Assembly (NCBI RefSeq): GCF_003334315.1
Contig: NZ_QOWR01000005.1
From: Escherichia coli
GTDB lineage: Bacteria; Pseudomonadota; Gammaproteobacteria; Enterobacterales; Enterobacteriaceae
Direction: 5' to 3' (one strand)
DNA: 64,000 bases
The first letter of the stretch is position 1. Each line of letters begins with the position of its first letter. A program made the position numbers and the translations under genes. This document shows, in pieces, positions 677-28,816 of this stretch. The notes below the pieces were generated by a model that saw only the letters and a program-made list of their open reading frames with translations, ran no database searches and was not told where the DNA came from.

Positions 677-851
677 GACTGCTTTACACAACCTTTTTGC
701 ACGTCTTTTCCCCAGGCGCGCGGCGAAAGAAGACTTGTGCCAGGGCAAAGGTTAGTTTTCGGATGGAATAATCTTCTTTCATAACCATTTGAATATAAAA
801 TAACTTTATCTCAAACCGTTATCATTTTGACTAAAGTCAACGAAAATAATA

Positions 852-895
852 TTGCCGCCTTGAAGAAAGGAGGTATAATCCGTCGATTTTTTTTG
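852..895 (+). promoter_or_regulatory. upp promoter with T8 initially-transcribed tract (UTP-sensitive reiterative transcription / start-site selection)
   Basis: -35-like ttgccg (852-857), 16-nt spacer, TATAAT (874-879), then GATTTTTTTTG (885-895) 27 nt before upp ATG; matches the known upp initiation region. Confidence 0.75.
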
Positions 896-921
896 TGGCT
901 GCCCCTCAAAGGAGAAAGAGT

Positions 922-1548
922 ATGAAGATCGTGGAAGTCAAACACCCACTCGTCAAACACAAGCTGGGACTGATGCGTGAGCAAGATATCAGCACCAAGC
1001 GCTTTCGCGAACTCGCTTCCGAAGTGGGTAGCCTGCTGACTTACGAAGCGACCGCCGACCTCGAAACGGAAAAAGTAACTATCGAAGGCTGGAACGGCCC
1101 GGTAGAAATCGACCAGATCAAAGGTAAGAAAATTACCGTTGTGCCAATTCTGCGTGCGGGTCTTGGTATGATGGACGGTGTGCTGGAAAACGTTCCGAGC
1201 GCGCGCATCAGCGTTGTCGGTATGTACCGTAATGAAGAAACGCTGGAGCCGGTACCGTACTTCCAGAAACTGGTTTCTAACATCGATGAGCGTATGGCGC
1301 TGATCGTTGACCCAATGCTGGCAACCGGTGGTTCCGTTATCGCGACCATCGACCTGCTGAAAAAAGCGGGCTGCAGCAGCATCAAAGTTCTGGTGCTGGT
1401 AGCTGCGCCAGAAGGTATCGCTGCGCTGGAAAAAGCGCACCCGGACGTCGAACTGTATACCGCATCGATTGACCAGGGACTGAACGAGCACGGATACATT
1501 ATTCCGGGCCTCGGCGATGCCGGTGACAAAATCTTTGGTACGAAATAA
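922..1548 (+). CDS. upp: uracil phosphoribosyltransferase
   Basis: 208-codon [26 protein letters not shown]...; SD ggag 911-914; track ORF 895 trimmed to ATG 922. Confidence 0.97.
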
Positions 1549-1563
1549 AGAATAAAAATAATT

Positions 1564-1593
1564 AAAGCCGACTTTAAGAGTCGGCTTTTTTTT
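1564..1593 (+). terminator. hairpin plus T-run between upp and uraA (intrinsic terminator/attenuator)
   Basis: 10-bp stem aaagccgact/agtcggcttt with loop ttaag, followed by T8 (1586-1593). Confidence 0.7.
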
Positions 1594-1633: not shown

Positions 1634-2923
1634 ATGACGCGCCGTGCTATCGGGGTGAGTGAAAGACCGCCACTTTTACAGACAATCCCGCTTAGTTTGC
1701 AACATTTGTTCGCCATGTTTGGTGCAACCGTCCTGGTGCCCGTCTTATTTCATATTAACCCGGCGACTGTACTGTTATTTAACGGTATTGGAACGCTGCT
1801 GTATCTCTTCATCTGTAAAGGGAAAATTCCGGCTTATCTTGGTTCCAGCTTTGCCTTTATTTCACCGGTATTGTTACTGTTGCCGTTGGGGTATGAAGTC
1901 GCGCTGGGCGGCTTTATTATGTGCGGCGTGCTGTTCTGCCTGGTTTCTTTTATCGTGAAGAAAGCGGGGACCGGCTGGCTGGACGTGCTGTTTCCACCTG
2001 CGGCAATGGGCGCAATCGTTGCCGTCATCGGTCTGGAGCTGGCGGGCGTAGCTGCCGGTATGGCGGGTTTACTCCCGGCTGAAGGGCAAACGCCAGACTC
2101 CAAAACCATCATCATCTCTATTACCACCCTGGCGGTCACGGTTTTAGGTTCCGTGCTGTTTCGTGGTTTCCTGGCAATTATCCCGATTTTAATTGGCGTG
2201 CTGGTGGGCTACGCGCTCTCTTTCGCAATGGGAATTGTCGATACCACGCCGATTATTAATGCTCACTGGTTTGCGCTGCCAACCCTCTATACGCCGCGCT
2301 TCGAGTGGTTTGCCATTCTGACTATTCTGCCAGCGGCGTTAGTGGTTATTGCCGAACACGTAGGGCACCTGGTAGTAACGGCTAATATCGTCAAAAAAGA
2401 TCTGCTGCGCGATCCAGGTCTGCACCGTTCGATGTTTGCTAATGGCTTGTCGACCGTGATTTCCGGCTTCTTTGGCTCTACGCCAAATACCACTTACGGA
2501 GAAAACATTGGCGTGATGGCGATCACCCGTGTTTACAGTACCTGGGTTATCGGCGGGGCGGCGATTTTCGCTATCCTGCTTTCCTGCGTCGGTAAACTGG
2601 CTGCCGCTATCCAGATGATCCCATTGCCGGTGATGGGCGGCGTTTCGCTGCTGCTTTATGGTGTCATCGGTGCTTCCGGTATTCGTGTTTTGATCGAATC
2701 GAAAGTGGATTACAACAAAGCACAGAACCTGATCCTGACTTCCGTGATTTTGATCATCGGCGTCAGTGGCGCGAAGGTAAACATCGGCGCGGCGGAGTTG
2801 AAAGGTATGGCGCTGGCGACCATCGTCGGTATCGGCTTAAGTTTGATTTTCAAACTGATCAGTGTGCTGCGCCCTGAAGAAGTGGTGCTGGACGCAGAAG
2901 ACGCGGATATAACAGACAAATAA
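1634..2923 (+). CDS. uraA: uracil:H+ symporter (NCS2 family)
   Basis: 429-codon [39 protein letters not shown]...; track ORF 1592 trimmed to ATG 1634. Confidence 0.96.
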
Positions 2924-28720: not shown

Positions 28721-28735
28721 AAGACAGATTACCAG

Positions 28736-28816
28736 GCCTGATAAGACGCGTGAGCGTCGCATCAGGCATCGTTCACCATTGCCGGATGCGGCGTGAACGC
28801 CTTATCCGGCCTACGG
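28736..28816. repeat. REP/BIME elements (two units)
   Basis: gcctgataagacgcgtgagcgtcgcatcaggc and gccggatgcggcgtgaacgccttatccggcctacgg. Confidence 0.85.

Follow-up and report, generated by a model that had tools for sequence, protein, structure and literature searches.

The run of eight Ts that follows the -10 hexamer of upp in the 64,000-nt stretch of Escherichia coli DNA analysed here (the window) is very probably part of the known upp reiterative-transcription promoter, that is, of the sigma70 promoter, with its initially transcribed region, that drives the pyrimidine-salvage operon upp-uraA in E. coli. Our analysis establishes the sequence of this element, its position and its identity to the promoter studied in K-12, and the cross-species comparison below indicates that purifying selection is strong on exactly the parts that the published model requires. 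The mechanism of this promoter is already known, and its occurrence here contributes nothing new on that mechanism.

The string GATTTTTTTTG occupies positions 885-895 of the plus strand, exactly where the original prediction had placed it, and it has a single copy in the 64-kb window. It had been described as lying seven nucleotides after a perfect TATAAT: the hexamer is indeed present at 874-879, and the distance is right for A886, the seventh base after it, but not for G885, the first base of the string, which is the sixth. Positions 871-900 read aggTATAATccgtcGATTTTTTTTGtggct, and the base directly 3' of the T tract is G895. The promoter and the operon that it serves are composed as follows:

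827-840: FNR box-like palindrome TTGACTAAAGTCAA, with its centre about 51.5 nt upstream of G885 (direct reading)
852-857, plus strand: weak -35-like hexamer TTGCCG (promoter scan; 16-nt spacer to the -10, 10/12 matches)
874-879, plus strand: perfect -10 hexamer TATAAT (direct reading and promoter scan)
880-884, plus strand: 5-nt discriminator CCGTC, which separates the -10 from G885
885-886, plus strand: alternative starts G6 (885) and A7 (886), counted from the -10, which are the published sites
887-894, plus strand: T8 tract, A8 in the template strand, as the site of slippage during reiterative addition of UMP
885-921, plus strand: 5' leader of upp in the transcript from G6, 37 nt long since the ATG of upp stands at 922
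909-914, plus strand: Shine-Dalgarno sequence AAGGAG, inside the upp leader
922-1548, plus strand: upp, uracil phosphoribosyltransferase, 208 aa (ORF with in-frame ATG; RefSeq WP_001295473.1)
1634-2923, plus strand: uraA, for uracil permease, which stands second in the upp-uraA unit (ORF and annotation)

The element has several of the sequence properties by which UTP-sensitive reiterative promoters are recognised. Its start purines lie 6 and 7 nt after the -10 hexamer, within the 6-8 nt expected of such sigma70-type promoters, and the T8 tract at 887-894 is a T run of at least three beginning at transcript position +2 or +3. A GA dinucleotide, as read from the sequence, adjoins the T tract at 885-886, and the genes downstream, upp and uraA, are pyrimidine genes, as expected of the upp/codBA/pyrBI class.

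The element is also identical to the experimentally characterised one of K-12. The base-for-base conservation claimed in the original prediction was borne out, as the window equals the K-12 strain C600 over 848-930, and the BW25113 knockout primer printed in PMC11200800 is the same as window 872-921. The window is thus identical to K-12 from the -10 hexamer through the ATG, and the substitutions that separate it from C600, at 789 and 847, both lie upstream of the functional core. The claimed match to the known upp initiation region holds as well, in that PMC7039003 gives the initially transcribed region of upp-uraA as 5'-GATTTTTTTTG; upp-uraA is named as a unit both in that paper and in Table S8 of PMC3688515. 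According to the annotation, which was taken from a RefSeq record 100% identical to the window over 600-960, the gene order is purN-purM (divergent), upp, uraA, hda and arsC, in agreement with the ORFs. The window is chromosomal E. coli DNA: the segment 600-960 found matches in all complete genomes of this species but one (5,425 of 5,426), usually a single one, always chromosomal and over the start of upp. Compared with the record of O157:H7 strain PV15-279, the window shows 100% identity over this segment and differences elsewhere, so that its strain is neither K-12 nor the one of that record.

Several other features of the neighbourhood were observed. Between upp and uraA stands a strong terminator-like hairpin that ends in a T8 tail (1564-1593, plus strand; 11-pair stem with 5 G-C pairs) and can be read as a hairpin on the minus strand too; the literature nonetheless treats upp-uraA as one operon. 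Partial termination at 1564-1593 could set the upp:uraA ratio. The upstream region of purM carries AAGCAAACGTTTGCGA at 661-676, a near-perfect 16-bp palindrome that resembles the PurR consensus (ACGCAAACGTTTGCGT) and is a candidate PurR operator of purMN. A gathering scan of the whole window against Rfam returned nothing near upp, its sole match above the gathering threshold being naRNA4 (RF02564, a nucleoid-associated, REP-like ncRNA) at 28735-28811, which scores 92.6 bits (minus strand) and 60.8 bits (plus strand).

In the mechanism published for this promoter, RNA polymerase would start at either G885 (G6) or A886 (A7), start-site use being taken from the literature. High UTP would favour starts at A7, from which the short AUUU... 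transcript would slip back on the A8 template run and receive UMP repeatedly, the AUUUUn products being released before the polymerase reaches upp. Low UTP would favour starts at G6, and many of these transcripts would pass the T tract normally and extend into upp-uraA. Start choice that depends on UTP, combined with stuttering, would thus switch uracil salvage up only under pyrimidine scarcity and without a repressor protein. Tu and Turnbough in 1997 (J Bacteriol 179:6665) reportedly located upp initiation at G6 or A7 (numbered from the -10 hexamer) and are said to have performed primer extension of upp transcripts already. By their account and that of Cheng et al. 2001, high UTP reportedly favours A7, with AUUUUn products (n ranging from 1 to over 50) that are not extended, while low UTP is said to favour G6, the transcripts of which mostly escape. 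Cheng, Dylla and Turnbough in 2001 (J Bacteriol 183:221) are further said to have seen regulation gradually abolished as the tract was shortened from 7 to 3 bp. Biochemical and genetic assays of the AUUUUn ladder, of the shift in start site with UTP and of tract shortening have thus been published for a sequence identical to the present one, in vitro transcription over a range of UTP reportedly among them, and our results contain nothing that contradicts the model.

The fate of the stuttered transcripts separates this model from one in which stuttering is productive, U-lengthened transcripts continuing into upp in the manner of B. subtilis pyrG and regulation working through the altered 5' end. 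Productive reiterative initiation does occur genome-wide in bacteria (PMC12709180), but the same study explicitly places upp, codBA and pyrBI in a separate, non-productive group and describes reiterative initiation at codBA and upp as indirect, arising through start-site switching at excess UTP. PMC7039003 likewise has pyrBI, codBA and upp-uraA yielding long reiterative RNAs without a return to canonical transcription. Productive stuttering at upp is therefore very unlikely, and the non-productive scheme is retained in what follows.

Occupancy of the promoter in living cells can be read from published ChIP-seq data. In MG1655 (NC_000913.3), upp lies at 2620246-2620872 on the minus strand, which places G6 at 2,620,909, or at 2,618,931 in the older numbering. 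Table S2 of PMC3688515 (Myers et al.), which comprises sigma70 peaks whose occupancy is not the same in aerobic as in anaerobic growth, gives a sigma70 ChIP-seq peak of MG1655 at 2.61893e+06, labelled upp/purM. This coordinate equals the computed G6/A7 position, within a method that has no single-nucleotide resolution, and the older numbering was verified on the FNR motif listed at 2,618,976 in the same paper, which is the mapped position of window 827-840. The peak at the matching coordinate therefore indicates that RNA polymerase holoenzyme occupies the upp promoter in vivo, at ChIP resolution.

Among the systems known to respond to nucleotides by reiteration, the upp-uraA promoter of E. coli K-12 is the same element, with the same string, gene and neighbours and a functional core without differences. 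The codBA promoter of E. coli (Qi & Turnbough 1995; 5'-ATTTTTTG) likewise combines UTP-dependent start-site switching with non-productive reiteration and serves pyrimidine salvage, but it belongs to a separate operon outside the window, has a shorter T run (T6) and differs in the detail of its start-site alternatives. At pyrBI (Liu, Heath & Turnbough 1994; 5'-AATTTG) and carAB P1 (5'-GTTTGC) of E. coli, UTP-dependent stuttering near the start also reduces productive initiation. Unlike upp, these two promoters have a T3 run only, respond to high UTP directly and without start-site switching, drive de novo synthesis rather than salvage, and combine stuttering with other controls. The promoter of B. 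subtilis pyrG (Meng, Turnbough & Switzer 2004) resembles upp in its nucleotide-sensitive 5'-end reiteration at a pyrimidine gene, whereas it senses CTP, reiterates G and does so productively, the poly-G extension being kept in the transcript as an antiterminator.

We compared the promoter across 80 Enterobacterales species, the closest returned by one scan of species-representative genomes with the Upp protein, so that the promoter itself was not a criterion of selection. The sample includes Escherichia, Citrobacter, Enterobacter, Kosakonia, Pantoea, Erwinia, Yersinia, Serratia, Dickeya, Brenneria, Hafnia, Edwardsiella and Rahnella among its genera. Across these species the parts of the promoter were kept as follows:

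-10 hexamer TATAAT: 80/80 species
discriminator length of 5 nt: 80/80 species
A at position 7: 80/80 species
G at position 6: 79/80 species, T in E. albertii
T-run length: T8 in 46, T7 in 25 and T9 in 9 species
discriminator sequence, four variants: CCGGC in 35, CCCGC in 27, CTCGC in 12 and CCGTC in 6 species
base 3' of the T run: G in 65, A in 13 and C in 2 species
leader length: between 34 and 44 nt in 77 species, the other three having 91, 91 and 172 nt

In the column profile, positions 866-868, 870, 872-881 and 884-893 reach at least 90% identity, a level equal to that of coding sequence, with 882-883 free to vary. The -35 hexamer is poorly conserved, T852, G854 and C855 alone among 852-857 being well kept across species. 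From this pattern, selection appears to target the -10 hexamer, its distance to the start purines, the GA dinucleotide and a long T run, and neither the trailing G nor the discriminator sequence. A -10 hexamer, spacing, GA and T7-T9 run that are kept amid drifting neighbours form the pattern that the published mechanism predicts. Our modest addition to what was known of this promoter is that its architecture (-10, 5 nt, GA, T7-T9) extends order-wide, being found in 80/80 species bar one substitution of G6.

The same alignment yielded some observations in their own right. The segment just 5' of the -10, 866-873 (AAA.G.GG; AAAAAGCGG in most species), is at least 90% conserved and has no extended -10 TG motif. 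Position 6 is T in E. albertii (TCTATTTTTTTTG) and also in one E. coli record, O8:H8 16F5M1D1, which has a T7 tract too; under the published model, a T at this position should remove or shift the start that allows escape at low UTP. Serratia, Symbiopectobacterium and Brenneria have the same TATAAT-N5-GA-T7/8 promoter with long leaders (91, 91 and 172 nt), for which stable folds of -27.8, -27.2 and -71.9 kcal/mol, respectively, are predicted, and the long upp leader of Brenneria contains two hairpin-plus-T-run motifs. An Rfam E-value scan of these three long-leader species gave no match. The long leaders may represent an added attenuator.

A T run in an AT-rich stretch could in principle be a product of chance and lack function. 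T8 runs do occur in the window at about the expected rate (6 observed against 5.2 expected), so the run alone is not unusual, and the 11-mer GATTTTTTTTG, with 0.09 copies expected, is only mildly unusual, being present in 8 of 100 shuffles. The composite TATAAT-N5-GA-T7, however, is expected 0.01 times per window with one mismatch permitted, and it has been kept in 80/80 species while the adjacent bases varied, which refutes the chance reading and leaves it a probability close to nil. The evidential weight thus lies in context and conservation and not in the string alone. No second copy of the composite was found in 573 kb of flanks (both strands counted) of the 80 related genomes, and when the window was scanned for further promoters built in this way, weak T5-type matches alone emerged, all of them intragenic or pointing away from genes.

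Runs of eight Ts are also typical of terminator tails, and the nearby T8 at 1586-1593 is one, which raises the question whether the run at 887-894 might belong, as its tail, to an intrinsic terminator or attenuator for transcription arriving from upstream. Against this, no G+C-rich hairpin lies 5' of 887-894 and the terminator scan is blank at 860-900, the only site that it returned in 560-1700 being 1564-1593. The divergent orientation of purM also means that no transcription reads into the T run, which itself begins 7 nt after a perfect and invariant -10 hexamer. In want of a preceding hairpin, a terminator at 887-894 was rejected as extremely improbable.

A further alternative places the function of the U8 run in the 5' leader RNA, beside stuttering or instead of it, where the run would pair with the Shine-Dalgarno sequence and damp translation, or serve as a U-rich landing pad for ribosomal protein S1. 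The minimum-energy fold of 885-960 indeed pairs U887-G895 with C907-A915 and so covers the Shine-Dalgarno sequence, and in 80 of 81 species the fold predicted for the leader places at least five Us of the tract in base pairs. This fold is, however, no stabler than those of shuffled sequences (z = -0.08; 81 of 200 shuffles were equal or better), and a U run pairs with any purine-rich Shine-Dalgarno sequence through U-A and U-G, so that its recurrence across species adds no independent evidence and offers nothing that could be scored as covariation. The effect of tract shortening described by Cheng et al. 2001 was, moreover, reportedly due to the fate of the transcript and not to translation. 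We therefore regard a role in the leader RNA as unlikely and keep to reiterative transcription as the function of the tract.

Upstream of the promoter core, the palindrome at 827-840 (TTGAC-TAAA-GTCAA) fits TTGAT-N4-ATCAA, the 14-bp inverted repeat of FNR, at 8 of 10 consensus positions. RutR, the 16-bp box of which is TTGACCA-NN-TGGTCAA, was considered as the owner of 827-840 and rejected, the spacing of the half-sites being off by 2 and the site being documented as FNR-bound. The FNR site is in fact already on record: Tables S5 and S6 of PMC3688515 include its reverse complement, TTGACTTTAGTCAA, among the predicted FNR sites, beneath a ChIP-seq peak of FNR at upp/purM, and 827-840 thus has both the inverted repeat and the in vivo occupancy expected of an FNR site. 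Among 81 upp upstream regions, a TTGA-N6-TCAA palindrome is found in 44, and in 42 of these its offset is fixed, at 47-48 nt upstream of the -10; other genera have a perfect FNR consensus at the same offset, for example TTGATCGGGATCAA. Myers et al. 2013 (PMC3688515) counted upp among the operons with an FNR peak and without an FNR-dependent change of expression in the medium used, and they cite Constantinidou et al. for activation of upp by FNR when nitrite is present. The position at -51.5 is unusual for an activating FNR site. With an FNR site in the promoter, UTP is not its sole input, and the upp promoter integrates at least UTP and FNR.

Within E. coli, the 74-nt region from the -35 to the ATG (852-925) is exact in 4,738 of 5,424 genomes, and its variants consist of substitutions at 857 and 858 and, repeatedly, of a T7 tract. 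Variation in tract length was counted in complete E. coli genomes with synthetic queries of the 74-nt region that differed in tract length, requiring an exact match from the -35 to the ATG:

T8 tract: 4,738 records, 87%
T7 tract: 439 records, 8.1%
T9 tract: 19 records, 0.35%

DSM 30083 / ATCC 11775, the type strain, is among the T7 records, and T7 is present on at least four SNP backgrounds; among the T9 matches listed, 8 of 10 are O157. As a control we used the T8 run in the terminator tail at 1586-1593, around which 74 nt were exact in 5,339 of 5,427 records and differed in any way in 88. The promoter T tract is thus at least five times more variable than a control run of equal length 700 bp away in the same assemblies, and the far lower variation at the control argues against simple homopolymer miscalling at the promoter tract. 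The comparison points to T7 and T9 as products of a real, slippage-prone allele rather than of sequencing error, context-specific errors being possible.

It is conceivable, and we put it forward tentatively, that T-tract length is a naturally tuned, slippage-prone setting through which lineages differ in the dynamic range of pyrimidine repression and hence in sensitivity to 5-fluorouracil, loss of G6 being a second route of retuning. Natural variation, at T7-T9, stays inside the tract lengths at which regulation was reportedly retained in the mutational work of Cheng et al. 2001. The upp promoter is a textbook case of repressor-free regulation, in which UTP is sensed directly by RNA polymerase through start-site choice and transcript slippage, and the T7 allele is unexpectedly common in deposited genomes of E. 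coli; if it is real, these strains would offer natural variants in which tract length can be tested against regulatory range.
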